Origin: Bacteroidaceae bacterium
GTDB lineage: Bacteria > Bacteroidota > Bacteroidia > Bacteroidales > Bacteroidaceae
Assembly (NCBI GenBank): GCA_017525235.1
Contig: JAFXTC010000018.1
Coordinates: 1,947-65,946 of the forward strand
Direction: 5' to 3'
DNA length: 64,000 bases
Shown: in pieces, positions 866 to 37,786 of the stretch
How the letters are laid out: each line of letters starts with the position of its first letter
Position numbering within the stretch: the stretch's first letter is position 1
Program-made: the position numbers and the translations under genes
The notes under the pieces: model-generated
What the model was told of the DNA's origin: nothing
The model's database searches: none
What the model saw: only the letters and a program-made list of their open reading frames with translations

Positions 866-3800
866 ATGGAAGCACTCGAAATATCATTAAGTTTCCTGAT
901 TTCGTATATAGTAGGAAATGTTCCATCTATTAAGGATTTGTTGGAAATAAACACTTCATTAGAAGAAAAGTTAGAAAAGTGTTTCAAGAAGGCCGTCAGT
1001 GATTGGGATGTTGATCCAGAGACAAAAAAAATGTTTGGGGATAATATGCCTCGATATTTGATTCACCTCAAGGAATTCCTTTCCCATACTCCCAAAGGAC
1101 ATCACCCAAAAGAGAATGAGCTTTTGAGGTTGTGGGCAGATTATATTATATCTGATGCTGACTGCAGTGCATTTATTCTGAAACATCAGCAGGATATAAT
1201 ACAAATGGATATACAACGAGGTTTCCAACGGGCAGAAGATATTTTATGCGATCTTAAATCTGCTATGGATGAGGAATTTCAACGTGTCCAGGAAAAATTG
1301 GATAGGTTGCTTAAGAGAGGAGTCTATTCATGTTCTGATTACTGGGATCGATATTCTACAATTGATACGGAAAAGAAACTTCCACAATCGATTATATTAT
1401 GTGGAAGAGAAGACATTTTCCCCAAAATCACTGGAGCCTGCAATAACCCTTCGTTGCTTAATATTGAATCAGAGACGCAAAAAGAGTCGCTTGCATTTGC
1501 TTGTGCTGTAGTTTTGTCATTAGGGAAAGACTATTCAGACAGAGCTTATGTTGTGGAAGACACAGGAGCCTACAAAGAACTATCCGTTATAGACAAACCA
1601 TTGATTATCATCACAAGTATCCTTGAAAACCATGCTATAGCTGTAAAAAATAGACATACCGTATTGTGTTGTGTTTCGCATCAAGATAGACTCCAAAACA
1701 CTATTAGGTTAGGAGAAATAGACAGAGATGGTTTTGTAGATGCCCTGAAGGATGCTGGATATGATGAGGCAAAAGCTAGGACAATGGCACGAGACACTTC
1801 AAGGGACATCAATAATTTTTGGCGCGCTGTGGGTATTGTAACAACAGCTCCCACTTGGGAAGACAACAAGAATATCAAGCTACTCATACCTGCTATGCTT
1901 TTAGGAGAATGGAGTGAATTGGTGAAGAACGATTGCGATATAGTATCGCAATTATCCAAGATGCCTTATGATGATTATATGCGCGAACTACACTTGATAA
2001 TAGCAGCTGAAGAATCGCCATTAACTAAAATCGGAGGAATATGGAAAATACGATCTCCTTATAACTTGATGCGACGTTTCTTCAGAGATATTACAGAAGA
2101 GGATATAAAAGCGTTTCTAAAATGTGCAGATTGGCTTATCGAAGACGATGATCCAGATGCTGTGGACAAAATGGATGCTGACTCCTTGAAATTTTGGAAG
2201 GACAAGCATGCTTTCTCTGATGCATTAAGAAGCGGTGTTTTCCAAGGAATTACTCTATTAGCATTGCTGCAAGAAGAAAACCTGGGTAGTTCAGAATTGA
2301 TTCGAAACTTTTTTCAGCAAAAACTTGATAGTTTCGGTCTGGTAAGATATTTATCGAACCGTAATTATCTTCAGTTGGTTGCAGAGGCTGTCCCTTCGGA
2401 GTTCTTATGCTATATTCAGTCAAATATGCGAGATGATAGTGAACTACTAAAAGAAATTTTTGAAGTAAGACAGCGAAAGTACGATATAGTTGGCACATCT
2501 ATCTATTACACAGATCTTCTTTTCTGTTTGGAGAATCTTGCATGGGATGAGCATTATCTATCATTAGTGACTGATATTCTACTCTATTTATGTAAATACC
2601 CGAATGAAAGCAATCGGGCAAATAAACCAATCAATTCGCTAATGGAAATATATCGATTCCGTCTACCTCAAACGTATGCCACATTTGACCAAAGGATGGA
2701 TATACTACATAATCTCTCTGGAAAATATCCAGACGAGGTAAGAATTTTGTGTTTCAAAGAATTGAAGGGGATATCTTCCATGGTATTCACTCATACAAGC
2801 CAATTCAAATGGAGATGGATGGAAAGGCAGTTTACTCCGAAATATATAGAATCGATTCCTGCGGAATATGTACAAAGAGTAGTAGACTTGATGTTACAAC
2901 TTACACAATGGACTAATGATGACATATGTGATTATTTGGAACTGTCGTCAAATGATTATATGCGTTTTTCGCGCGATTGTTTGCTCGCGGCTATTTCCGA
3001 ACACAAGGATCAAATGAAGGGTAATGACCTAATTGTAGAAACTTTACGAAAAGATATAAAAAGACATCGTTCTTGTAAAAAGGCAAAATGGGCACTGAAT
3101 GATGAGGAATTAAAGCCTTATGTAAATTTATTATCTGAAATTGAATCAGAAGATATTGTCATTCGAAACAAACATTGCTTTGATGAGCTATTACTTGAAG
3201 AACTGGATTTTGATAATGTGGGTTATGAGAAGAGGCATGAGGATACTCTCCAATATCGTGTATCTATAATTGATGAAATAATAGGAGAGAGAGGTATAGA
3301 AGGCGTGTTTCTGTTATCGAGATTGTCAAAGCAGAGTAGTACTATTGCGGAAGCTTTGGTAAAACTGAATGGCGGAAAGTATACAAATGAGATTTATAAA
3401 GGAGTTATTAAAACCTTACTACCAGAACAATTTGTACGCTCGTATTTCTTCCATCTTTATTTCGAGATTGGAAATGATACATATTTAACTATTTGCGATA
3501 CACTGCTCGCAGTTTCAGAGAATCATATTGCCGTCGTATTATATGCGCCTGAATTCAAACGTGAACTTGCAGACCGAGCAGAAAAACTAGGAGATAATGT
3601 GTCCTCTGAGTATTGGAAAAATGTAACACTGTGGAGACTTTCCGAAAGTGATATTCCATTGATACAGATGCGCCTAAAGAGTATTGGAAGATACGAAGAT
3701 CTCTTGACTCTTATGACTCATGGAAGTGTTGTAAGTGCATTCAGCTCGGAGGATAAAGTGTCGCTCCTCTTAGAGATGTTCCGTGCAGGTTTTATTGAGA

Positions 3801-26183: not shown

Positions 26184-26939
26184 ATGAAATATCTATATTG
26201 GCTTTACCAGTTGCTTATAGCAGGTCCAATACTTCTGATTGCCACCATTCTTTGTGCAGTAATTGTAATCATCTTCGGTCCTATCTGGCCCGCATGGATG
26301 GGTTACTATCCTCCTATGGTGTGGAGCCGTCTGATGTGTTGGGTCTGTCTGCTTCCGGTTAAAGTGGAGGGTAGGGAACATCTGAGCAAGCATCAGTCAT
26401 ATATCTTTGTAAGCAATCATCAAGGCGCGTATGATATTTATCTTGTTTATGGATTCTTAGGAAGGAACTTCAGGTGGATGATGAAGAAATCCTTGCGTAA
26501 GATTCCCCTGATAGGAAAGGCATGCGAGAGAGCCGGACATGTGATGGTGGATAAGAGCGGGCCCAAGGCCATTAATGCCACTTGTGAACAGGGACGCAAA
26601 GTCTTGCGTGGCGGTATCAGCCTGATGGTTTTCCCAGAGGGAGCACGCACCTTCACTGGTCACATGGGTAAGTTCCGCAGGGGAGCTTTCCAAATGGCTC
26701 ATCAGTTGCAGTTGCCTGTTGTGCCTGTCACTATCGACGGTTCCTTTGATGTCTTGCCGCGCCAAAAGGGCTTTAACTTTGTAACATGGCATCCGCTACG
26801 ATTGGTTATTCATGAACCTATCCTTCCCAATCCTCTTGATCAAGAAGAGATAAAGGACGTAATGGAGCAGAGTTATAAGACAATCATGTCGGCGTTGCCA
26901 GAGAAATATCAAGGCTTTATTGAGAATCCCGACCAATGA
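26184..26939 (+). CDS. plsC: 1-acyl-sn-glycerol-3-phosphate acyltransferase
   Basis: NHQGAYD (HX4D) and FPEGART acyltransferase motifs; N-terminal TM helix. Confidence 0.8.
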   Translation: MKYLYWLYQLLIAGPILLIATILCAVIVIIFGPIWPAWMGYYPPMVWSRLMCWVCLLPVKVEGREHLSKHQSYIFVSNHQGAYDIYLVYGFLGRNFRWMMKKSLRKIPLIGKACERAGHVMVDKSGPKAINATCEQGRKVLRGGISLMVFPEGARTFTGHMGKFRRGAFQMAHQLQLPVVPVTIDGSFDVLPRQKGFNFVTWHPLRLVIHEPILPNPLDQEEIKDVMEQSYKTIMSALPEKYQGFIENPDQ

Positions 26940-27805
26940 CCTTTACCCACCATTATACTATTCACGAGGCAGCCAGTTACATAAACTGGCTTTATTTCTT
27001 TCATGCCTGGGGTTTCCCCGCCCGTTACAGCAGTATCGCCAAGGTTCACGGCTGTGTTGCTTGTCGGCAGAACTGGCTGCAAGCTTTTCCTGCCGAGGAG
27101 AGAGAGCGGGCAGAACAAGCCATGAAGCTTTTTGATGAAACCGGGCAACTTTTGCGTCAGTGGGATGAGGCCGGCTATTGCACCACCTTTAGCGTACGAC
27201 TTCTTGAAGCCAACTCCGATGGTGAAGATATCATCCTTTTGGAATCTGGTCAGCGTATCCCTTTCCTTCGTCAACAGTATGCTGATGAGGGGAAGCCTTG
27301 CCTTAGTCTTGCCGATTTTATTCGTCCGTTATCTTCTGGTGTTCCTGATAAGATAGGAGTGTTTGCCAGTACTGTTCCTAATACTGTCCCCATTAAGGGA
27401 CTTGAGGAGAGTCTTGTTGCCGATCGTCTGGCTGAGGCAACAGCTGAGTTGGGTCATTTGCAGACAAGACGTGAATGGTGGGGCTATGCTCCTGATGAAC
27501 AACTTACCATAGAAGAGCTGTTTGCCGAGAAATATCAAGGCAAGCGTCCTGCTGTTGGTTATCCTTCTTTGCCCGACCAGAGCATTTGTTTCCTGCTTTC
27601 CGATTTGTTGGATTTCCCCTCTTTGGGCATTTCCTTAACAGAGAATGGAGCCATGATTCCACATGCCAGCACCTGTGGCTTCATGTTCTCGCATCCTGCC
27701 ACCTGCCATTTCTCTGTTGGCAAAGTAGGGGAGGACCAGCTTAAGGATTATGCCCATCGCAGAGGAGTTCCTGCCGATTCACTCCGCAAGTTCCTCAGAA
27801 CATAA
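26936..27805 (+). CDS. Methionine synthase activation (AdoMet-binding) domain protein
   Basis: Stand-alone ~290-aa protein resembling the MetH C-terminal reactivation domain (...RPAVGYPSLPDQS...). Overlaps plsC by 4 nt. Confidence 0.7.
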   Translation: MTFTHHYTIHEAASYINWLYFFHAWGFPARYSSIAKVHGCVACRQNWLQAFPAEERERAEQAMKLFDETGQLLRQWDEAGYCTTFSVRLLEANSDGEDIILLESGQRIPFLRQQYADEGKPCLSLADFIRPLSSGVPDKIGVFASTVPNTVPIKGLEESLVADRLAEATAELGHLQTRREWWGYAPDEQLTIEELFAEKYQGKRPAVGYPSLPDQSICFLLSDLLDFPSLGISLTENGAMIPHASTCGFMFSHPATCHFSVGKVGEDQLKDYAHRRGVPADSLRKFLRT

Positions 27806-27817
27806 AGAGATAACACA

Positions 27818-27976
27818 TCAAGATTGTTTGCGGCATAAATCATGTGGGTAGAGTGAATCAATATAATGGCTCCACGTCAATTGTCCAGACACTGTTTGGA
27901 TTTTTGGGAATCGCACATATAACAGTCTCATATTGAACAAATTAGACAGAGAGTGGCCTTTCCCTCTTACAGCCAT
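27818..27976 (-). pseudogene. Internal fragment of a YhcG/DUF1016-type (PDDEXK nuclease) gene
   Basis: Hand translation MAVRGKGHSLSNLFNMRLLYVRFPKIQTVSGQLTWSHYIDSL... aligns by eye with the YhcG segment ...KGFSRTNLFYMRKFYLAYP...VQQAVGQLPWGH... Only ~50 codons remain, with stops on both sides. Confidence 0.5.
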
Positions 27977-28058: not shown

Positions 28059-28066
28059 CAAAGATA
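28059..28066 (-). promoter_or_regulatory. Orphan -7 box TATCTTTG upstream of the YhcG-like remnant
   Basis: TAnnTTTG match on the minus strand with no intact gene downstream. Confidence 0.3.
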
Positions 28067-28112
28067 CAAATCTAAAGACTTTCCTCTTAGAAGTAGAATC
28101 AAAGAACTTAAT

Positions 28113-29516
28113 TTAACTATTTAAGTTGAACAACAAATGAATCTTATCAGCATAGTTATCTAAAGAAGGACACCCGTCAAACCGATTATCCCAAAATTGA
28201 ATAATTCTAGAAAGTTCAGATCTGTCCAATTGTTTTGGATCAAAGTTTAAGTTGATTTCTTTTGCCGAGTCATTATATGTATACAATTTGTTACTATCTG
28301 TGCCATATTCATTCTGATTATATCCAACTATCAACATTCCTATAATGAGATAGAAAGGATGGCTTGTATCAGAATATTTTATTAATTCATGCGGGAATAT
28401 CTCTATAATAATATCAATGAGATTCTGGATGGAAAATTTTCTCTTGCATATCTGTTCAAACAATTCCGAATGACAAACATGTAAATATATTAAAACAAAA
28501 AGGTAATCACAACGCACATTACTATATGTAGGAAACATTCGTAGGGCGAGGCGTGTATTAGAAAACAATCTATCAATACTTCGTAAGGGAAGATTAGAAT
28601 ATTGAGAAATTGTTGTAGTCATATCTGTAAATGTTTTAGCCTCACTATTGCTTTGATTTCTTCTGGGTCGTTCTATGCTATCAAAAAACTCACTAAATGA
28701 ATAATATTCAAAGAGATAACTACAAAACGATTGAATATTTGTTTGTGGTAGCGTAAATTCCAAGTCGACAAACCTTCTAAGATATTCTTGTGCGTTAATA
28801 CTTTCACTTCCATAATAGCCACAAATCGAATGACAAAGATGTTTTTTATCTACAGACAATACAAAAACAACATTACGAACAGAAAATAAATGCTTAATAC
28901 GTTCAAGAACTTTCACAGCATATTTTGGATTGCATCTATCTAATTCGTCAACAATAAATACCAAAGGCTTATTGGGAGTCATCCCCAAAACGTATTCTTC
29001 CAAAGCGTTTTGAAAGGCTTCTATTGATTTCTTTTGCTCAATATATTTATCCAGACTTTGCTCCAAAGTGTTTGAAAGTACTTCTAGTCCTTCTTTTGAT
29101 ATTTTTTCAAGGTCAACCCCAAATGAATATTTTGCGATTAACGATAATATTGTTGGAACCATAGCAAGAGACATCTTGCTAAATGTCCTCGTCATCTTCT
29201 TAGTTGCCTCTTGCAATTTGTCTGTTGATAATTTCTTGAATTCTGCAATTAGTGCAATTAAAGGGTCTTCGATATAGTCAGTTTCCCAAGCATTAAAATA
29301 AATAGTTTTATAAGTATGATCATCAAGTTGTTGTTTCCACATTTTGATGAAAGTGGTCTTTCCTGTTCCCCATTCTCCGTTTAATGAAATCACACAGCCT
29401 CCATTATATGTAGAAATGATTTGTTCTAATACGTCGCCATATTGTTTCCTTCCAAGTTTGTCATTCCGATAGGGATCCATAGGTGGAATAACGATATCAC
29501 TATGTCGTGCTAACAT
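28113..29516 (-). CDS. KAP family P-loop NTPase
   Basis: DKLGRKQYGDVLEQII...ISLNGEWGTGKTTF (Walker A); FNAWETDY; Walker B/KAP motif VFIVDELDRCNP; hydrophobic insert SLAMVPTILSLIAKYSFGV between Walker A and B. Confidence 0.85.
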   Translation of the reverse strand: MLARHSDIVIPPMDPYRNDKLGRKQYGDVLEQIISTYNGGCVISLNGEWGTGKTTFIKMWKQQLDDHTYKTIYFNAWETDYIEDPLIALIAEFKKLSTDKLQEATKKMTRTFSKMSLAMVPTILSLIAKYSFGVDLEKISKEGLEVLSNTLEQSLDKYIEQKKSIEAFQNALEEYVLGMTPNKPLVFIVDELDRCNPKYAVKVLERIKHLFSVRNVVFVLSVDKKHLCHSICGYYGSESINAQEYLRRFVDLEFTLPQTNIQSFCSYLFEYYSFSEFFDSIERPRRNQSNSEAKTFTDMTTTISQYSNLPLRSIDRLFSNTRLALRMFPTYSNVRCDYLFVLIYLHVCHSELFEQICKRKFSIQNLIDIIIEIFPHELIKYSDTSHPFYLIIGMLIVGYNQNEYGTDSNKLYTYNDSAKEINLNFDPKQLDRSELSRIIQFWDNRFDGCPSLDNYADKIHLLFNLNS

Positions 29517-29592
29517 GTTAATGTTTTATTATTCGTGATTTAGACTACACCGTAACATTTTATAGTTATCAACAGTCTCCATGAATTAACTC

Positions 29593-29997
29593 TTAAATCA
29601 CACTTTTGTCAATTTCGAAAAACACAAAAAAGGCAACAATTAGGATATAACCTATTATCAAAGTCCAGAGTTTACCTTTATAAAGAATCCAGCCCCATTT
29701 GTTTTTTTCTTCTGGTTCCTTCACATCCTCATTTTCTTCCTTGCCGAATTTATCTTTCATCATAGTATAATAATCATACCATGTAATTGAAAGGTGATAA
29801 TTTTGAATTAAATCTGCAAATAACGTGATAATGAATAAAGATAATGCACCTATCAAAAGCAAGGGAAGATTCTCTGGTTCTGCTTTAGTCATAAACAACC
29901 AGGCAATCGCAATGCCAGATATAGCTAAGTTTCTTACGGTGCTGCTAAATGTGCCAGAGGTTTCTTCGTATCCCTTCCTAATATCTTCTAACTTCAT
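29593..29997 (-). CDS. 134-aa three-TM membrane protein, unknown function
   Basis: Three hydrophobic helices (ISGIAIAWLF; LLLIGALSLFIITLFADLI; LWTLIIGYILIVAFFVFF) with an acidic/lysine-rich loop. Same strand as the KAP NTPase gene and 76 nt upstream of it. Confidence 0.65.
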   Translation of the reverse strand: MKLEDIRKGYEETSGTFSSTVRNLAISGIAIAWLFMTKAEPENLPLLLIGALSLFIITLFADLIQNYHLSITWYDYYTMMKDKFGKEENEDVKEPEEKNKWGWILYKGKLWTLIIGYILIVAFFVFFEIDKSVI

Positions 29998-30110
29998 TAT
30001 CTTTGATTTGCTGGAGTTCTTGGGCCTGTTCCTCTACTACTGCCTGTGCTAGGCTTTGGTGATGTTGTTGTTCTTGGAGTCCCTTGCGGACGTTGTACTG
30101 TATTATTCAT
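29997..30110 (-). CDS. Candidate 37-aa micro-ORF MNNTVQRPQGTPRTTTSPKPSTGSSRGTGPRTPANQR
   Basis: Hand translation. Its TAA stop overlaps the ATG of the 3-TM gene (TAATG). It is the first ORF after the TATCTTTG box at 30169-30176 and is too short for the ORF track. Confidence 0.3.
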   Translation of the reverse strand: MNNTVQRPQGTPRTTTSPKPSTGSSRGTGPRTPANQR

Positions 30111-30168
30111 GTGATTAGAATTATATGTTTAACTTCTTATTTATTTCGTTTGGCGTATTCTTGGTTAG

Positions 30169-30176
30169 CAAAGATA
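30169..30176 (-). promoter_or_regulatory. -7 box TATCTTTG for the micro-ORF/3-TM/KAP operon
   Basis: TAnnTTTG match about 59 nt upstream of the micro-ORF ATG at 30110. Confidence 0.4.
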
Positions 30177-30188
30177 CGTTTTGATGTT

Positions 30189-30305
30189 TTATCCCTGTGT
30201 TATCCGCTCAACTCTTGCACTAGCACCAGTATCAAAATCTTCGTATCTGGTCTTGAGTCCATGAGCCAAGTCAAATCCGTTTCCTATGAGAACAAGCCGA
30301 TTCAT
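30189..30305 (-). pseudogene. AbiH-like abortive-infection gene remnant (first ~25 codons conserved, 38-codon ORF)
   Basis: Hand translation MNRLVLIGNGFDLAHGLKTRYEDFDTGASARVERITQG*. IGNGFDLAHGL.T.Y.DF is the N-terminal signature of AbiH-family proteins. The ATG overlaps the hsdM stop (TAATG). Confidence 0.5.
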
Positions 30306-31891
30306 TATACCAATGGGGGCAAACCAAGTTCTTTCAAAAATTCATTATGCTTATCACGAGCTTTGATGATTTCTGCTTCTATCTCTACCAACTTATCATG
30401 TACTTCTTGAAGGTCAATAGGCTTTTCTTCTTGTGCCAGACTAACATAGCGGGTAATGTTCAGATTGTAGTCATTATCCCTAATCTCTTGCAGTGTGACT
30501 TGACGGGAATAACGTAATATTTCCTTGCGGAACTGGTATGTATCTACAATATCGTCTACATCTTTATCTCGAAGATAATTCTGGCGTTTGCCCTTTTCGT
30601 AATGCTCATCGGAACTGGCATTGATGAAAAGTATTTTGTCATTCTTACGACACTTCTTTAATACAATGATGCATACAGGAATACCTGTTGAATAGAACAG
30701 ATTGCCTGGCAAACCAATAACAGCATCGATATTGTCATCTTCGAGCAGTTTCTTTCTGATAGCCAACTCCTTGCCTCCACGGAACAACACACCATGAGGC
30801 AGAATGATAGCCATTGTCCCGTCTTCACTTAGAAAGTGGAAACCATGCAAAAGGAAAGCAAAGTCAGCGGCAGAACGTGGTGCTACTCCATAGCGATTAA
30901 AACGGAAGTCATTGATGGTGTCTTCCGTTGGATCCCAACGCAGAGAGAAAGGCGGATTGGCTACGACTGCATCGAAATCTATCTTGTTAGCAGGATTTTC
31001 CTCCTGCAAGATATCCCAATCATTAGCAAGTGAATCACCATGATGAATTTCAAAAGCAGAGTCTTTTACCCCATGCAGCAACATATTCATTCGGCAAAGG
31101 TTATAGGTCGTGATATTCTTCTCCTGACCATAAATCTTGCCTATTCCGCTTTCGCCCATCTGGTTGCGAACATTCAGCAACAACGATCCTGAACCACAAG
31201 CAAAGTCAAGCACACGGTTAATCCTGTTCTTCTTGCCAGATGCAGAGTCTTGACAATCCAAAGTAACAATACGAGAAAGAATTGTTGAGATCATCTGTGG
31301 GGTATAGAACTCACCTGCCTTTTGACCTGAACCTGCTGCAAACTGACCAATCAGATATTCATAAGCATCACCTAACGAATCGTTATCGGCAGAGAATTCT
31401 TTCAGTCCATTCGCAATCGTCGTAATGACCTTTGTCAACAAGTCATTTCGCTCTGTATAGTTCTTTCCTAACTTCTCAGAACTCAAATTGATTTCAGAGA
31501 ACAAACCTTTAAACGAACTGTCAAAGGAATCATTCTCTATATATTTAAAACCATCTTCTAATGTTTGAAGCAGTTCTTTGCTTTGAATTCTGGCCAATTC
31601 GACAATATTATTCCATAGATATTTTGGTTCAATTACATAATGAACTTTACGTTTCATCTGCTTCTCAAACAGCTCCGTATCGTTGGGGTTCTCAATGTAC
31701 CAAGTCTGTAGTGTAGTGTAATCAGCCCCCAGTTCCTTTTTTGCGGCATCGACGTAGTTATCCGACAAGTATTTCCAGAACAAGAACGACAGCATATAAT
31801 CACGGAAATCATCTGCCATCATAGCCCCACGTAGATTGTCGGCTATTCCCCAGAGGACCTTACCTAATTCATGTTGCTTGTTTGTAATCAT
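30305..31891 (-). CDS. hsdM: Type I restriction-modification system methyltransferase subunit
   Basis: HsdM N-terminal domain (LWGIADNLRG); AdoMet motif LDFACGSGSLL; catalytic VVANPPFS. Confidence 0.9.
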   Translation of the reverse strand: MITNKQHELGKVLWGIADNLRGAMMADDFRDYMLSFLFWKYLSDNYVDAAKKELGADYTTLQTWYIENPNDTELFEKQMKRKVHYVIEPKYLWNNIVELARIQSKELLQTLEDGFKYIENDSFDSSFKGLFSEINLSSEKLGKNYTERNDLLTKVITTIANGLKEFSADNDSLGDAYEYLIGQFAAGSGQKAGEFYTPQMISTILSRIVTLDCQDSASGKKNRINRVLDFACGSGSLLLNVRNQMGESGIGKIYGQEKNITTYNLCRMNMLLHGVKDSAFEIHHGDSLANDWDILQEENPANKIDFDAVVANPPFSLRWDPTEDTINDFRFNRYGVAPRSAADFAFLLHGFHFLSEDGTMAIILPHGVLFRGGKELAIRKKLLEDDNIDAVIGLPGNLFYSTGIPVCIIVLKKCRKNDKILFINASSDEHYEKGKRQNYLRDKDVDDIVDTYQFRKEILRYSRQVTLQEIRDNDYNLNITRYVSLAQEEKPIDLQEVHDKLVEIEAEIIKARDKHNEFLKELGLPPLV

Positions 31892-33018
31892 ATATAAAAC
31901 TGAAATTTCGTTTCGATTCTTTCAAAAATGTCCATAAACAACTTTTGCTGTTCAGGTGACATCAAGTGTGTTTGATAATAATAAACATCTTTATGAGATT
32001 GCTCATTAACAACCTCTGCAGTATTTGAATCGTCAATCCCAAGTCTGCTTAATGCAAATCCAAAGTTGCCACTTCTACCAAGGAAAGATGCTATATTTTC
32101 TAATAATTGTCGAAGCAATACGAAATTGAAACAATCTAAGTACCCATTTTGTGTTTTGTCAATGTTTTCCTTAATCATTTTATAAAGATGTAAATGATAT
32201 AAGAACACATCATTTCCATAAGAAGATAGCAGTAATTTTCCATTAGGATCTTTTCCCAATATAAATGTTTTTGTTATATTTTTAAATCTTTCACTTCCAC
32301 TGGCTTTTCTAAGTCTATCAATAAGAATAGAGTACAATTCTACATGATGAGTTGTAATAATAATCTTTTTCCTTTTATAATTATTTATAATAACATCCAT
32401 AATTGCAGATGCCGTAATATGGATATTATGCTCGTCTAAACTCGAAACTGGATCATCTATAAAGATATGAGCATCTTGCTCTTCAATCCATGCTTCAACT
32501 TCGAAAAGAGCCAAGAAAAAACACCAGATAAAAATACGTTCCTCTCCTCTTGAGATTTTGATTGGATGAGCCTGTTCGACGTCGTCTAAGGTGTAAAAGG
32601 AAAAAGAATCAATGCCCTTCTCTATATCATCAAAGCCATTTGTTTGATAAACATTTATTTTAAAAGTAAAATTTGGATTATATCTATTCAATTTTTCTTG
32701 AATCCTTGTAAATACGATTCTACCATCTTCTAACTTTTCTGTACCTTCTATCAAATAAGAATGGTATTGATTCAAACTACTTTCCAGTACAGACAATTTC
32801 ATATTTTGATTGCTATGTTCTTCATCATTATCCCAAAAGAACAAGTCTTCACTATAAGCATTAAAATATACACCAGCATGATTTCCTCCATTATGCTGCT
32901 TGGTCGTATCTTTGTATGAAACGGATAATCTTGTTTTGCCTACAGCGTTAAAGGCATAAATTAAAACAATTTTTGATGTTTCAACTCGTATCTGTTCTGC
33001 AATTTCTTTTAAATCCAT
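31888..33018 (-). CDS. PrrC-like ABC-type ATPase / putative anticodon nuclease embedded in the hsd operon
   Basis: Variant P-loop IYAFNAVGKT; signature-like ISRGEERIF; Walker B HIFIDDPVSSLD; H-loop IITTHH. The C-terminal region has RQLLE (R-x3-E) and NEQSH 39 residues later, like the PrrC Arg/Glu/His triad. Sits between hsdS and hsdM with 4-nt gaps/overlaps. Confidence 0.55.
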   Translation of the reverse strand: MDLKEIAEQIRVETSKIVLIYAFNAVGKTRLSVSYKDTTKQHNGGNHAGVYFNAYSEDLFFWDNDEEHSNQNMKLSVLESSLNQYHSYLIEGTEKLEDGRIVFTRIQEKLNRYNPNFTFKINVYQTNGFDDIEKGIDSFSFYTLDDVEQAHPIKISRGEERIFIWCFFLALFEVEAWIEEQDAHIFIDDPVSSLDEHNIHITASAIMDVIINNYKRKKIIITTHHVELYSILIDRLRKASGSERFKNITKTFILGKDPNGKLLLSSYGNDVFLYHLHLYKMIKENIDKTQNGYLDCFNFVLLRQLLENIASFLGRSGNFGFALSRLGIDDSNTAEVVNEQSHKDVYYYQTHLMSPEQQKLFMDIFERIETKFQFYI

Positions 33019-33022
33019 ATTG

Positions 33023-34291
33023 TTAACTATTTATTGGGAATAATTGCTGAATTAATCCTTTTTTATAATCTTCTATATATATAAGTTTGTTTTTATATGC
33101 ATCAATTAAATCATCTATAGTTGATAAGCAAGATGCAATTTTCATTTGCTCTTTCATATTTTGAGGATGCTGCCATAATAAAGATTCAATATCATTGGAA
33201 GATATATTAGGTTGGGCTCCTGCAGCTAACATCTTTTTAATTTGATTGGCAAAATGATCCGTTCTTATCCATTGACAAATGAAAGGATAATAAATTGAAT
33301 TATCAACCAGTTTAAATATACCTACACGTTGATTGACATATACAGGTTTCTTTCCACGGTAAATGGCAGTCTTTCCTGTTGTTGCTCCAGACATTGCAAT
33401 TAATAAGTCTCCGTCATTTGCAGTATAATTATGCATATTTGGAAGTTCTTCATAAAAAACACAATTCTGAAGATTTACAACTAATGAATCTGATGGAATA
33501 TTTGATATTCTAATAACTGGAATTTCTGTAGTTTTGAATTTGTTACTCTTGAAAGCATATCCACCTTGCAGCTTAAATGATTCTCCCACTCTATTTGTTG
33601 TCCAATCTTCATTCGTTTTAAACTCTGGTAAACGATACTCAGGAACTGTTTGCCCCTTTTGAGGGAACAACTTTTGTAAAAGGCTTGTTTTATGTGCCTT
33701 TAATTGCTCCACTTTTTCGCTAATAGAAGAAATGTATGAATCAATAGAGGACAAACACTCTGCTATCTTTTGCTGTTCTTCAATAGATTTTGGTATAATC
33801 AGAGGACAACTTAAAACTTCATCTTTTTTAAGATTTGTTTGCTTTACCCCATCATCAAAGGATAAGAAATAGGGATTCCTATTTAATATGTAATACAATA
33901 ATTTACTGTTTGCTCCTTTAGATCGAAGCTTGCAAATCCGTTGGTTTACAGTGTATTTGTTTGAAGCATCTACATAAAAACATTTTGCAATTGCTTTTCC
34001 ATTTGGCAAATCACTCAACACCATTAAAATATCATCTTCTTTAGCCAAACAATGAGCATTGTTTGTTCGCTTCTCAATTTGACCTTCTGTTGATATAAAT
34101 TTTGAGTTTACAACTATATACTTTCCTAATGAGTCAATATCGTTTTCATGAGCCACCCCATTTTCATAATCCATTTCTGCTCGTAATGTGGTACAAGCCC
34201 ATTCTGTATCCCTCACAAATTTAGGGAAACGGAGTAATGGGATAAGTTTCTTCTCTGTATTCATAATATTAACCCTCCCATTAATCTTCAT
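33023..34291 (-). CDS. hsdS: Type I R-M specificity subunit
   Basis: Two target-recognition halves separated by conserved helices (...QQKIAECLSSIDSYI... and ...QMKIASCLSTIDDLI...). An alternative start at 34264 (MNTEKKLIP) is possible. Confidence 0.85.
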   Translation of the reverse strand: MKINGRVNIMNTEKKLIPLLRFPKFVRDTEWACTTLRAEMDYENGVAHENDIDSLGKYIVVNSKFISTEGQIEKRTNNAHCLAKEDDILMVLSDLPNGKAIAKCFYVDASNKYTVNQRICKLRSKGANSKLLYYILNRNPYFLSFDDGVKQTNLKKDEVLSCPLIIPKSIEEQQKIAECLSSIDSYISSISEKVEQLKAHKTSLLQKLFPQKGQTVPEYRLPEFKTNEDWTTNRVGESFKLQGGYAFKSNKFKTTEIPVIRISNIPSDSLVVNLQNCVFYEELPNMHNYTANDGDLLIAMSGATTGKTAIYRGKKPVYVNQRVGIFKLVDNSIYYPFICQWIRTDHFANQIKKMLAAGAQPNISSNDIESLLWQHPQNMKEQMKIASCLSTIDDLIDAYKNKLIYIEDYKKGLIQQLFPINS

Positions 34292-37274
34292 ACGCTGAAA
34301 GTCCGGAAATTTTCTGACCTCCTGTCATTCGTTTGAGCAAAGGAATTAGGTCCTTCATCAGTTCCTCTTCTTTTCTGGCACGGTCTTTCCAACCTAATTC
34401 TGAAGGAGCAATTAGGTCAAACAGTTTTTCTCCATCAAAGATTCTTCGCTCTATGATTTCATTGACAAATGTCTGAACGGCTTCAATATCCAAATGATGT
34501 TTCTCAGCAATGGAAGATATCGCCTTGGTAAACTTGTCTTTCTTGAAAAGTTCGTAGCCCTGTTCTATTTCCTTCTCTGTCTTGCCGTTCACACCTTTGG
34601 CATCCAAGTCGTCAATATAGTCGATGATGTCTTCGCGCTCGTCTATAAGGTTGGCACTGGAACAAATCAGACTTACTAATTGCTCCTTTGTCATCTTGTG
34701 CACAGAAGGCGCACCAACGTAACGACTGATGAGCCCCATGATATAATCATAGTCTATTAATGCCGATGCAAACAAGACAAATTCAAAATCTAAATCCTCG
34801 ATTTGTACTGAAACTGTTGGGTCATTATTTTCACGTTTTGTTTTCAATTGTTTAGCTACATCAAGGTATGCACCACGAAATGCACGCATTGTGTCATCTG
34901 TGAAACCATAAGCAACGGTAGGCTCTGCTACGCCATCACCCTTGTCGTCATTGGTTTCAATAAGGTCGGTATATTGATCCAATTGGGTTTTGTATCGCTG
35001 CACTTCCTTGAAATAGTTGATGAAACATGCCTTTGCATCGTCACCTTTTAAGTTAGCAACCTCTTCGGCTTTGAACTCAAGATTTTGAAGATGCATGAAA
35101 TTACGTAAGTCGTTTATGGCCTTGCAATATTTCTGGTTGATAACATTTGCCGGCTCGACTAACCATACTTGACGGGCCTTTTCTTCATCCTTAATGCCAG
35201 AGAATAATGCAATTGCTTCATCAACAGCTTCTTGTTGACCTCGGAAATCAAGGATATTTCCGTATGGTTTAGTATCGTTTAAGATTCTGTTGGTACGAGA
35301 GAACGCCTGCACAAGTCCGTGATACTTCAAGTTCTTATCCACATAAAGCGTATTCAGATACTTGGAGTCAAAGCCCGTCAGCAACATATCCACCACAATC
35401 GTAATGTCTATCTTGTTCTTATGTGGATAATCCTGATTGGTGTATTTCTGGCTCTTAATGCGTTTTTGTACATCCTGATAGTATGTGTCAAACTCATCAG
35501 CAGAAAGGTTGGTGTCATATTGTTTGTTGTAGTCATCAATAATTTCCTTGAGAGCCGCTTTCTTCTGATCTGGATCTTGCTCATTGTCTATGCGCTCTTG
35601 CTGTAAATCTTCTTGAATTTGTATAATGTCTCTGTTTCCCTCTGCTGGCGGAGTAAAAACACAAGCAATATTCAGTGGCTCGAATGTATCATCCAGATGT
35701 TGGCAATCAGATTGCATTCGTTTGAACAACTGGTAATACTCAATAGCCTCGTTGATGGAGCTTGTGGCAAAAATGGCATTGAAACGACGTTCATTAGTAG
35801 CATGGTCATGCTTCTGCAAGATGGTTCTGACAATAGATTGTTTCTTAGCACTACCTATGGTATAGGCATCCTCATCAGGTCTGAAATAATCCACATGGAA
35901 GCGTAATACATTTCTATCATCAATAGCATTGGTGATAGTATAGGCGTGTAGTTTTTTCTCGAACACATCTTCTGTAGTTTTGTATTGTGCCTCTTCACCT
36001 GTTATCTGTGTATAGGTTGCATTCTGTTCAAAAATAGGCGTGCCAGTAAAACCAAACAATTGTGAATTTGGGAAGAATTCTTTAATGGCCTTGTGGTTCT
36101 CCCCAAACTGTGAGCGATGGCATTCGTCAAAGATAAATATCATTCGCATACCCTTTATCGGAAGTAAACGTTCCTGATAGTTACGACGATTCTGCGGATC
36201 TAAGGCAATGCCCAACTTCTGAATGGTAGTCACGATGATTTTGTCGGAATAATCCTCGGACAACATTCTGCGAACCAGTGCATCTGTATTAGTGTTTTCC
36301 TCCACACAGCCCTCTTGGAATTTGTTGAATTCCTCGCGTGTTTGTCTGTCAAGGTCTTTTCGATCTACCACAAACAGGCATTTGTCTATTTCGGGATTGT
36401 CCTTCAATAGTGTTGCAGCCTTGAATGAAGTTAACGTCTTTCCGCTGCCCGTGGTATGCCAAATATAGCCATTACCACGGTTTTCTTTGATGCAGTTCAT
36501 GATGGCCTTTACAGCATAAATCTGATAAGGACGCATCATTAGTATCTTTTGTTCACCTGCCACAAGAACCATATATCGGCTAATCATTTCACCTAACTTG
36601 CACTTTGCCAAGAATGCATCAGAGAATTCATCAAGGTTGGTTATTTTTTTGTTCTCCTCATCTGCCCATTGATAGACAGGCAAATAATTCTCGGCAGCAT
36701 TGAAATTAAAATGATTTCTGTTGTTGTTAGCAAAATAATAGGTATTCGTCTGGTTACTGACAATAAACATCTGCATGAAACAGAGAAGAGAATTGGTATA
36801 TCCATTACCGACATCATTCTTGTAGTCTACAATTTGTTGCATAGCACGACGAGGGCTCACATCGAGTGTCTTCAGTTCGATCTGAACAAGGGGTAAACCA
36901 TTAACCAATAGAATTACGTCATAGCGATGTGAGCTATAGCGAGTATTCATTCTTAACTGATTAATGACCTCATAGTCGTTTTTACACCACTCTTTGATAT
37001 TGACAAGTGTATATTGAAGCGGCGTACCGTCTTCACGCATAAACGTATTACGTTCACGCAATTTTTTGGAAGAGACATAGACATCCGAATTGGTAAGTTC
37101 TTCCATCAATCGGGTAAACTCTGCATCTGTAAGATGTACCTTATTTAATGTCTGAAACTTCTCCCTAAAATTACGCTCAAGACTCTGTCTGTCGTGAATG
37201 TCATCACGATAGATATACTTTAAATCCGTTACTAGTTTCTTTACGAAACCATTCTCTATTTGACTTTCTAACAC
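34281..37274 (-). CDS. hsdR: Type I restriction endonuclease subunit R (EcoR124/type IC-like by N-terminus)
   Basis: N-terminal nuclease region; helicase motifs HTTGSGKT, FDECHRSQ, TGTPIF; about 1000 aa. Confidence 0.9.
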   Translation of the reverse strand: MLESQIENGFVKKLVTDLKYIYRDDIHDRQSLERNFREKFQTLNKVHLTDAEFTRLMEELTNSDVYVSSKKLRERNTFMREDGTPLQYTLVNIKEWCKNDYEVINQLRMNTRYSSHRYDVILLVNGLPLVQIELKTLDVSPRRAMQQIVDYKNDVGNGYTNSLLCFMQMFIVSNQTNTYYFANNNRNHFNFNAAENYLPVYQWADEENKKITNLDEFSDAFLAKCKLGEMISRYMVLVAGEQKILMMRPYQIYAVKAIMNCIKENRGNGYIWHTTGSGKTLTSFKAATLLKDNPEIDKCLFVVDRKDLDRQTREEFNKFQEGCVEENTNTDALVRRMLSEDYSDKIIVTTIQKLGIALDPQNRRNYQERLLPIKGMRMIFIFDECHRSQFGENHKAIKEFFPNSQLFGFTGTPIFEQNATYTQITGEEAQYKTTEDVFEKKLHAYTITNAIDDRNVLRFHVDYFRPDEDAYTIGSAKKQSIVRTILQKHDHATNERRFNAIFATSSINEAIEYYQLFKRMQSDCQHLDDTFEPLNIACVFTPPAEGNRDIIQIQEDLQQERIDNEQDPDQKKAALKEIIDDYNKQYDTNLSADEFDTYYQDVQKRIKSQKYTNQDYPHKNKIDITIVVDMLLTGFDSKYLNTLYVDKNLKYHGLVQAFSRTNRILNDTKPYGNILDFRGQQEAVDEAIALFSGIKDEEKARQVWLVEPANVINQKYCKAINDLRNFMHLQNLEFKAEEVANLKGDDAKACFINYFKEVQRYKTQLDQYTDLIETNDDKGDGVAEPTVAYGFTDDTMRAFRGAYLDVAKQLKTKRENNDPTVSVQIEDLDFEFVLFASALIDYDYIMGLISRYVGAPSVHKMTKEQLVSLICSSANLIDEREDIIDYIDDLDAKGVNGKTEKEIEQGYELFKKDKFTKAISSIAEKHHLDIEAVQTFVNEIIERRIFDGEKLFDLIAPSELGWKDRARKEEELMKDLIPLLKRMTGGQKISGLSAYED

Positions 37275-37408: not shown

Positions 37409-37786
37409 TCACTTAATTACACTCGCAAACGACCTTTTATCTGCATCAATCCATGCGGTGGTGCCTTGCATGGCCGTACCTGTACAGAAACTGGCAGCTG
37501 CTGAAGGTGAGTTAACAAGTAACTCTACATCCATCTTAAGGGTGTAGAAATCGCCTTCGGGATGCATGATGGAAGGAATAGCGAAAAGTTCGTCACGACG
37601 TTTACGAATGGCAACGGGAATACTCTTTGCGGCTTTGGCACGAATTCGACTCCCAGCCTTAATAACATACCTATTATCTGTGGGATAATAGTCTAACGCT
37701 GCCTTACGTGTGCTGCCCATGTCTATGATACGGGCTCCAGTTAGAGACTTATCCAGCAATTTTGTATAAACGGTTAGTATTGCCAT
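37409..37786 (-). CDS. DUF4357 domain protein (lacks the usual N-terminal GIY-YIG half)
   Basis: YVIKAGSRI...VNSPSAAASFCTGTAMQGTTAWID matches the DUF4357 pattern (...SPSAAA..v.G...NG...W). Confidence 0.6.
   Translation of the reverse strand: MAILTVYTKLLDKSLTGARIIDMGSTRKAALDYYPTDNRYVIKAGSRIRAKAAKSIPVAIRKRRDELFAIPSIMHPEGDFYTLKMDVELLVNSPSAAASFCTGTAMQGTTAWIDADKRSFASVIK

Follow-up and report, generated by a model that had tools for sequence, protein, structure and literature searches.

On the minus strand of a 64,000-nucleotide (nt) stretch of a Bacteroidaceae bacterium contig (JAFXTC010000018.1), referred to below as the window, three open reading frames (ORFs) follow one another in the same orientation: a 37-codon micro-ORF, a gene for a 134-amino acid (aa) protein with three transmembrane (TM) segments, and a gene for a 467-aa KAP-family P-loop NTPase. 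Sequence comparisons indicate that two cassettes of ORF size, each with its own evolutionary history, make up this interval; along with an abiH stub, they are stacked behind the 3′ end of a type I restriction-modification (R-M)/PrrC operon. The explanation that best accounts for the data as a whole, to which we assign a probability of about 65%, is that the micro-ORF/TM pair (cassette A) is a peptide-gated membrane effector and the KAP gene (cassette B) a sensor/switch, and that the two would act independently of each other.

The micro-ORF occupies positions 29997 to 30110 and encodes the basic, Pro/Thr/Ser/Gly/Arg-rich peptide MNNTVQRPQGTPRTTTSPKPSTGSSRGTGPRTPANQR. Its TAA stop codon overlaps the ATG of the TM gene (29593 to 29997) in the sequence TAATG, and a 76-nt spacer (29517 to 29592) separates the TM stop from the start of the KAP gene (28113 to 29516). 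A first-pass annotation of this DNA had described these ORFs, the KAP motifs, the abiH stub, and a putative promoter box; all were found on the minus strand where it had placed them.

The same annotation had proposed that the three ORFs form one system in which the NTPase is the sensor and the small membrane protein the effector. Homologs of the TM protein were recovered at 42 loci, which represent 17 distinct contexts. As judged by tblastn, a KAP gene adjoins the TM gene in only 1 of the 17, the lineage of the window itself, which is also represented by eight near-identical metagenomic copies of the window locus (L002 to L009). In the other contexts, the gene located 3′ of the TM gene encodes a 998-aa UvrD/GajB-like helicase, a WYL-WCX regulator, a NERD plus zinc-ribbon protein, a Peptidase_S24, or unknown proteins of 134 to 587 aa. 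The micro-ORF/TM pair is likewise not present in any of the three closest KAP lineages, whose proteins are 80, 61, and 42% identical to the window KAP. The sizes of the two families are also ~50-fold apart, with at least 3675 clusters for KAP (E value of 1e-20 or better) versus 77 for the TM protein.

The boundaries of DNA homology separate the same two units. In an alignment of 13 distinct loci, similarity starts ~15 to 20 nt 5′ of the micro-ORF ATG and stops at the TM stop codon. Since homology between loci is limited to the micro-ORF and the TM gene, the mobile unit is the two ORFs without a conserved promoter. On the KAP side, blastn comparison of the window with its 80% identical relative (L043) revealed 81% identity over 1410 nt, which is exactly the KAP ORF. 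The 76-nt spacer is specific to the window: It is conserved neither with the other TM loci nor with L043.

Several features do speak for a single three-gene defense system, in which KAP would sense infection and the small membrane protein would kill the cell. The genes are co-oriented and 76 nt apart, and neither a terminator-like site nor a box matching TAnnTTTG, the Bacteroidota −7 promoter consensus, was found in the spacer; the three genes are therefore probably co-transcribed in the window. The KAP protein appears to have no clear TM insertion of the type described for Tmn and many other KAPs and could in principle borrow a membrane partner, and the arrangement is stable across eight metagenomic contigs of one lineage. 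However, as near-identical copies of one locus, those eight contigs do not amount to independent observations, and KAP is listed by PADLOC as a single-gene candidate. Together with the lack of KAP in 16 of 17 TM contexts, the lack of the pair in the close KAP lineages, and the homology breakpoints that isolate each unit, this makes a three-gene system very improbable, and the proposed pairing of a KAP sensor with a TM effector fails with the non-co-occurrence of the genes. The co-transcription is probably an accidental operon rather than the mark of a conserved system.

The KAP gene alone has a counterpart among cataloged candidates. Its product matches the Pfam KAP_NTPase model (PF07693) with 149.1 bits versus a cutoff of 20 (residues 24 to 320, profile positions 2 to 285 of 293). 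Both Walker A (GEWGTGKT, residues 47 to 54) and Walker B (VFIVDELDR, residues 186 to 194) are intact, and both are invariant across 38 homologs. In PADLOC-DB, the protein matches PDC-S20 (PDLC04959) from end to end (E = 4.4e-147; residues 1 to 465 versus profile positions 1 to 462 of 464), so this gene belongs to an entry that already has a name, an outcome that the first-pass annotation had listed among those that would refute its proposal. The PDCs are 145 untested “phage defence candidates” selected by “guilt-by-embedding” within type I R-M, BREX, or DISARM systems (Payne et al., bioRxiv 10.1101/2024.01.29.577857). PDC-S20 is a single-gene PADLOC entry with candidate status; the string PDC-S20 was not found in the text supplement tables of Payne et al., and nothing relevant on it was found in the literature. 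Nearly all members of the large KAP family are ~470 aa long.

The surroundings of the closest relatives are those of a gene that travels alone. The 80% identical protein (P0079) is preceded, with a 4-nt gap, by a gene for a 476-aa Methylase_S protein. The 61% (P0081) and 42% (P0095) identical proteins both follow genes for a 603-aa N6_Mtase and a 183-aa Methylase_S and precede genes for 362- and 364-aa proteins, respectively. These two downstream genes (L044 and L045) were considered as a conserved 3′ partner, which was rejected since they are unrelated to each other (blastp E = 5.5); no remnants of either are present in the window. Thus, with homology confined to the ORF, unrelated genes downstream, and R-M subunit genes upstream, KAP is a single-gene unit without an obligate partner. 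Cassette B moves on its own, habitually behind type I M/S genes. The 183-aa Methylase_S encoded after the 603-aa N6_Mtase and before KAP (L044:5353-5904 and L045:5366-5917) is about half the length of an S subunit, and these loci may have a distinct architecture of M, half-S, and KAP.

The AlphaFold (AF2) model of the window KAP has a mean confidence (predicted local distance difference test, pLDDT) of 82.7, dropping below 50 in residues 119 to 144 of the insert between Walker A and Walker B. The only hydrophobic stretch is weak [residues 116 to 134, KD(19) of 1.41]. Since the insert is low-confidence and only weakly hydrophobic, the protein appears to lack a clear two-helix membrane insertion of the Tmn type. 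The nearest solved fold is that of RdrA, the ring-forming ATPase of RADAR (Foldseek E = 1e-6, TM-score 0.37 to 0.48); a sequence search of the Protein Data Bank (PDB) with the KAP protein returned no match. Partial hidden Markov model matches to the NTPase domains of PifA and QatA were also obtained with PADLOC (E of ~1e-22).

The P-loop KAP fold with Walker A and B is common to the window protein and RdrA, PifA, Tmn, and QatA. In contrast to RADAR and Qat, no RdrB, QatBCD, or other partner gene lies near the window KAP; the PifA match covers only the N-terminal NTPase; and, unlike Tmn, the window protein offers only the weak stretch within a low-confidence loop. Identity with QatA was rejected (NCBIfam QatA, 67.7 bits versus a cutoff of 600; no QatB/C/D genes nearby), as was membership in RADAR, to which only the fold similarity to RdrA points, with no gene for an RdrB adenosine deaminase adjacent. 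In sequence, nothing sets the window KAP apart from PDC-S20. As in the PDC set, the window gene and its relatives are found within type I R-M operons or behind them; in the window, the gene is not part of the R-M gene set, and the abiH stub and the micro-ORF/TM pair lie between it and hsdM. We propose that cassette B would act as a sensor/switch that forms oligomers and is driven by NTP, in the manner of RdrA, PifA, or Tmn.

We next consider cassette A. A micro-ORF in frame with an invariant RGTGPR motif is present at 41 of the 42 loci with a TM homolog, the exception (L042) being only a 36-residue fragment. Such retention is far beyond chance. The 41 micro-ORFs are 34 to 43 codons long [e.g., MDKTEQRPQESSSTTRLPDTNHGNSRGTGPRSPGYKGK in L010, MANESEQQQQNQSGESRDPNIGTQRGTGPRTSGNQR in L022, and MAEQQTTKKPNTSSSPTPQTGQQRGTGPRKPNTESK in L026]. 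At these close loci, the micro-ORF stop lies between −4 and +3 nt from the TM ATG, and 6 to 8 residues separate the Gly-Pro from the stop. In the window, the RGTGPR codons (30018 to 30035, minus strand; residues 26 to 31) end 7 residues before the stop, and the peptide has an isoelectric point (pI) of 12.0 and a charge of +5.5. A profile search with the peptide identified 59 clusters of called proteins of 31 to 58 aa (E down to 1e-13), all unnamed and all with a GTGPR tail; nothing relevant on GTGPR was found in the literature. The earlier proposal that the micro-ORF is real and translationally coupled to the TM gene is thus well supported by the placement of its stop at the TM ATG and by its retention across loci. 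The pair is a real, conserved, previously uncataloged bicistronic cassette and the part of the interval worth following up.

Conservation is seen at the level of the peptide. All six codons of the motif differ between loci only synonymously; the second Gly, for example, is encoded by GGC, GGA, GGT, and GGG about equally. For the pairs that could be aligned unambiguously, the ratio of nonsynonymous to synonymous substitution rates (dN/dS) is 0.04 to 0.38 for the micro-ORF, 0.07 to 0.44 for its first 25 codons, and 0.01 to 0.10 for the TM gene. No conserved RNA structure was found around the motif and the start codon (2 invariant pairs, −0.01 kcal/mol), and the micro-ORF region has no match in Rfam. 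An RNA explanation for the motif was rejected on these grounds; since the motif codons vary synonymously, dN/dS is low, and RNA structure is lacking, the selective constraint acts on the peptide and not on the RNA. A peptide-TM fusion produced by programmed frameshifting or read-through was also considered. At the loci compared, the TM N terminus, MKLxEIR, always begins at the ATG, and the frame of one ORF relative to the other is not the same at every locus (TAATG, ATGA, TAA-AA-ATG, and TAG-TAG-ATG), which excludes such a fusion.

The same kind of tail is found well beyond the close relatives. Five distant contexts were sampled, and in each of them an upstream ORF ends in such a tail. L049 has two tandem same-frame micro-ORFs (3330 to 3600), ending in ...NYGTGPRMPQKEK and ...SAGTGPRNNHK, near AbiP/AbiC-like and AriA/OLD-like genes; a third called ORF at this locus (43 aa, 2900 to 3031) contains a KPGPKR-like sequence. 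L053 has a 46-codon ORF ending in ...ESRGTGPRADKPQPKK that overlaps the TM ATG and lies behind an integrase, a DEAD-like protein, and an unknown protein. In a temperate Vibrio phage (PQ189331; L057), an unannotated 88-codon ORF ending in ...DTRSGGPKSPKVVKL precedes the TM gene by 9 nt; this TM gene is the last gene and lies beside a CI-like repressor gene. On a Vibrio breoganii plasmid (L058), an annotated 108-aa hypothetical protein ending in ...KKGTRSGGPKTKIGKAL overlaps the TM gene, near ssb/traD. In the most distant clade sampled (L055), the upstream ORF is a 155-aa HU-like protein (1449 to 1916) with the tail ...DNTGPNIKIKK, which overlaps the TM ATG beside a helix-turn-helix gene; the presence of the tail on an HU-family DNA-binding protein is a hint that unrelated proteins can acquire it.

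The tail common to close and distant loci is R-[GS]-[TG]-G-P-[RK], located 5 to 9 residues before a stop that abuts the TM start; the Vibrio prophage and plasmid tails end in ...TRSGGPK.... The exceptions are L055, whose ...NTGPN... is only degenerate, and the two L049 micro-ORFs, which lack the leading Arg. When the distant clades are included, the micro-ORFs are 34 to 52 codons long (or form the tail of 88- to 155-aa proteins), and their stops lie −4 to +12 nt from the TM ATG.

We propose that cassette A would be a membrane-acting defense, exclusion, or addiction effector whose production or activity is gated by the upstream peptide. One form of such gating, which we put forward tentatively, is action in cis: The micro-ORF would be a regulatory leader whose tail pauses or slows termination in the ribosome and thereby controls re-initiation at the TM gene, so that TM synthesis would depend on the state of translation. 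The features of the tail described above agree with this, since conservation is concentrated in the last ~12 residues, the N-terminal part varies in sequence and length, and the motif is held at a fixed distance of 5 to 9 residues from a stop that abuts the ATG; so do the tandem duplication of the micro-ORF in L049 and a constraint that acts on peptide and not RNA. There is precedent in arrest peptides, a known class encoded by small ORFs that precede diverse genes and end in C-terminal Arg/Gly/Pro motifs (PMC12992588). The micro-ORF has the layout of arrest and leader peptides such as SecM (RAGP), ApdA/ApdP/ApcA (RAPP/RAPG), TnaC, and SpeFL: a small ORF with a variable N terminus and an Arg/Gly/Pro motif near its C terminus, lying immediately 5′ of the gene under its control, which here would be the TM gene.

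The likeness has limits. (R)GTGPR is not among the RAPP, RGPP, RAGP, and RAPG motifs, and when a core of this kind, as defined in PMC12992588, was looked for in the micro-ORFs, it was not found, the motif being RGTGPR, or RSGGPK in Vibrio. It differs from the four-residue RAPP-like motifs in position as well, preceding the stop by 5 to 9 residues instead of marking the arrest point, and the micro-ORF lacks a hydrophobic monitoring segment. In addition, the first 25 codons are also under purifying selection in the close subfamily, and stop-start overlaps are common in ordinary operons.

The membrane protein itself is compact and poorly connected to known families. The window protein has hydrophobic segments at residues ~23 to 38, 43 to 66, and 108 to 130 and a Lys/Glu-rich loop at 78 to 104. 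Its AF2 model (pLDDT of 76.6) contains four helices, three of which carry the hydrophobic segments. The pI is 5.0, and the loop contains a conserved acidic motif, E88/E94/P95/E96/N99 (EPE..N). Across the broad family, S18, R22, G28, W33, D62 (inside the second TM segment), Y67, K109, and Y117 are conserved. No Pfam, PADLOC, PHROG, or NCBIfam model matched the window protein, a Foldseek search of the PDB with its model returned only generic helical bundles (best E = 0.38), and no literature on the micro-ORF/TM family was found.

In a collection of 5.8 billion proteins, the close relatives form 77 clusters. Their identity to the query is 54 to 100%, and all but a few truncated entries cover at least 84% of it. 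Most are 122 to 144 aa long and unnamed; the few automatic labels are spurious. When 1.84 billion representatives (clusters at 50% identity) were searched with a profile, 1250 proteins were retrieved at E ≤ 1e-3 and 249 at E ≤ 1e-10, almost all of them 120 to 140 aa long and matched over their full length. None of them belongs to a Pfam family, and their matches in PADLOC and PHROG do not rise above chance level. Two rare members have long C-terminal extensions, P0203 (430 aa), which appears to have further hydrophobic segments, and P0223 (229 aa); these extensions contain no Pfam domain and were rejected as a clue to function. The alignment of TM proteins retrieved one locus from species-representative genomes, which means that the close subfamily is rare in reference genomes. 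A scan of IMG/VR found none, and plasmid sequences searched by tblastn with the TM protein of the window contained no match.

The properties of this protein bear on a second form of gating, in which the peptide would act in trans. Here, the pair would be a toxin-antitoxin (TA)–like module in which a labile, basic, disordered peptide holds a membrane toxin in check by binding its acidic cytoplasmic loop; the toxin would be freed once expression ceased, whether because a phage shuts it off or because the R-M cassette is lost. This too we regard as possible, at odds well short of even. The charges of the two products are complementary, the pI values of 12.0 and 5.0 being accompanied by the conserved acidic loop; the gene order is antitoxin-first with a stop/start overlap, as in type II TA operons; pairing is obligate; the whole peptide is under purifying selection; and the module occurs on mobile elements and in defense islands. 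As in type II–like TA loci, two small co-oriented genes overlap (TAATG or ATGA) and occur together at 41 of 42 loci. SpoIISA/SpoIISB and CptA(YgfX)/CptB are TA pairs in which a small membrane toxin is matched with a small hydrophilic antitoxin. Cassette A resembles them in combining a small multi-TM protein with a short, charged, probably disordered partner, translationally linked and carried on mobile DNA; it differs in having no sequence similarity to them, a gene order unlike that of SpoIISAB, and a much smaller peptide (~37 aa). The conserved polar residues R22, D62, and K109 are unusual for simple pore-forming toxins, and the upstream partners in distant clades are quite different proteins that have only the tail in common, both of which count against a trans-acting antitoxin.

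The position of the pair in the genome is the most regular feature after the micro-ORF itself. Sufficient upstream sequence was available for 16 contexts, and in 14 of these the pair lies directly behind a same-strand R-M operon. The R-M genes are of unrelated kinds: type I HsdM (the window), N6_Mtase plus Methylase_S, two Dcm plus HNH, Dcm plus MvaI/BcnI, a lone Dcm, type IIG/MmeI-like enzymes of 800 to 1100 aa, a type ISP enzyme, and a 1505-aa methyltransferase-S fusion followed by a DUF4062 gene. The gap between the upstream stop and the micro-ORF ATG is 0 to 20 nt, or the genes overlap, in eight contexts and is 47 to 73 nt in five; larger gaps are found in L016 (349 nt) and in the window, where the ATG is located 194 nt after hsdM and 78 nt after the abiH stub. 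With no conserved promoter and, almost always, only a few nucleotides behind the last R-M gene, cassette A is most likely expressed by read-through from the R-M genes; in the simplest reading, the pair would be expressed as the tail of the R-M transcript. Neighbors of the pair include PrrC, AbiP/AbiC-like, AriA/OLD-like, GajB-like, NERD, and WYL genes. The R-M tail position, the defense neighbors, and the prophage and plasmid accessory sites suggest a role for the pair in defense, exclusion, or addiction.

The same regularity can be interpreted differently. Rather than being a defense or addiction module, the pair may serve R-M systems as an accessory, for example as a membrane tether or as a regulator, or may provide mobile elements with entry or superinfection exclusion. 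Its constant place at the end of R-M operons of every type agrees with the former, and the copies on the Vibrio plasmid, beside ssb/traD, and in the prophage, beside the repressor gene, occupy sites typical of exclusion genes. Yet a single accessory is hard to fit to mechanistically unrelated R-M types (I, II, IIG, and ISP), the distant family members occur without R-M neighbors, and the profile searches revealed no homology to known exclusion proteins. We consider this interpretation quite unlikely. The arrangement also recalls PrrC, a back-up defense embedded in type I R-M loci, since both cassettes ride R-M operons as PrrC does and a PrrC homolog is encoded in the operon in the window; the micro-ORF/TM pair differs in trailing R-M systems of all types, at the 3′ end rather than between the R-M genes, and has no sequence or domain in common with PrrC. 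A more far-reaching idea, which we rate as improbable, combines the observations on tail and position: The pair would be a new phylum-spanning mobile cassette in which the R-x-x-G-P-[R/K] nascent tail makes synthesis of the membrane effector translation-dependent, carried without a promoter on the tails of R-M operons of every type as a second-line abortive or exclusion device for when restriction fails.

Some findings weigh against our preferred explanation of two independent cassettes with effector and sensor/switch roles. Some loci share backbone genes (Peptidase_M15_3, WYL, and a BT4734-like primase), and the adjacency to R-M genes could therefore stem in part from the layout of a single mobile-element family and not from functional coupling; moreover, the pair does not follow an R-M operon in the four or five contexts from distant clades. 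Of 64 members of the broad family, only 2 faintly match a known TM effector model (SAVED_TM); in this sample, the matches were scattered, with E values of 1e-3 or weaker (SAVED_TM, 2 of 64; RT-SLATT, 1 of 64; and DUF7420, 7 of 64), and stayed at chance level. The TM protein resembles SLATT, SAVED-TM, Cap15, and PycTM proteins in being a small helical membrane protein in defense neighborhoods; it differs from them in these chance-level matches, the lack of a Pfam SLATT match and of an associated signaling enzyme, and a partner that is a micro-ORF and not a sensor protein. A defense role of either cassette is suggested by genomic association only, the cis and trans models of the peptide both fit the data, and a local functional interaction of the three genes in the window is conceivable.

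The box TATCTTTG at positions 30169 to 30176 (minus strand), which the first-pass annotation had taken as the −7 element of the module, is present and possibly serves as a promoter here. The window contains 76 copies of TAnnTTTG, versus 50.6 ± 7.9 in shuffled sequences, and none of 100 shuffles reached 76. This excess is consistent with a Bacteroidota genome that uses the −7 promoter element; since the pattern is so common in the window, one match between the abiH stub and the micro-ORF is weak evidence for a promoter. A role as the conserved promoter of the module was rejected because the box lies outside the unit conserved between loci, in window-specific sequence. The sole terminator-like hairpin of the region (27948 to 27967, minus strand; a weak consensus match only) is located ~150 nt 3′ of the KAP stop. 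Two adjacent TAnnTTTG boxes (28059 to 28074, minus strand) lie just 3′ of the KAP stop and point into a stretch of ~250 nt that has no substantial ORF and ends at this hairpin; they could belong to a small transcript or be just chance.

The abiH stub (30189 to 30305, minus strand) is a 38-aa ORF whose start overlaps the hsdM stop. It matches AbiH in PADLOC and in Pfam (E = 5e-9, profile positions 1 to 22 of 260), and in tblastn, it matches the N termini of annotated AbiH proteins with up to 62% identity over 34 aa. A full-length AbiH domain is absent, and the ORF is a truncated pseudogene; no C-terminal remnant was seen 3′ of KAP. Given a genuine AbiH N terminus without such a remnant, an abiH gene behind hsdM has been truncated next to the inserted cassettes. 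The earlier suggestion that the cassette replaced most of abiH thus holds as far as the truncation beside the insertion is concerned.

The view of the interval as cargo of a defense island agrees with its location directly behind the type I R-M/PrrC operon (30305 to 37274, minus strand; identified with Pfam and PADLOC), which consists of hsdR (34281 to 37274), hsdS (33023 to 34291), prrC (31888 to 33018), and hsdM (30305 to 31891). The product of the embedded anticodon nuclease–like gene matches PADLOC PrrC (E = 1.4e-86) and Pfam AAA_13 in its C-terminal part. With a PrrC homolog encoded between hsdS and hsdM, the operon of this rumen Bacteroidales genome is arranged like the classic prr locus, and the same gene order is present in the identical loci L002 to L007. 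The island varies within the window lineage: L003 has a RhuM-family gene after KAP (L003:4246-4680) and an HsdM of 542 aa (L003:257-1885) versus 528 aa. Small DUF4357 or T5orf172/GIY-YIG–like genes recur just 5′ of R-M operons with micro-ORF/TM or KAP tails (window 37409 to 37786, minus strand; L021:1100-1972; L026:1201-2076; L029:378-1190; and L045:2903-3550) and may be a conserved “head” gene of such R-M cassettes. On the KAP side, the island is flanked by a gene for a 289-aa stand-alone protein (26936 to 27805, plus strand; conserved in L002 to L005) that corresponds to only the C-terminal activation domain of methionine synthase (Met_synt_B12; MetH positions ~940 to 1226).

Overall, these results remove a false three-gene system from consideration, and the KAP gene should be labeled simply PDC-S20. 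The micro-ORF/TM pair draws attention to an upstream gene of 35 to 40 codons that is routinely missed by gene callers and to a peptide motif whose conservation extends from Prevotella of the rumen to Vibrio of the sea. The two genes of the pair habitually come last in R-M operons of unrelated types, which suggests that they are general companions of restriction systems. A peptide that acts in the ribosome would be a new regulatory nascent-chain motif in Bacteroidota, a phylum with unusual translation initiation; if it acts in trans, it would be among the smallest antitoxin-like partners known. Should the tail prove to be the basis of a phylum-spanning cassette, it would add a motif to the known arrest- or termination-type peptides and reveal a new way in which defense is tied to translation.

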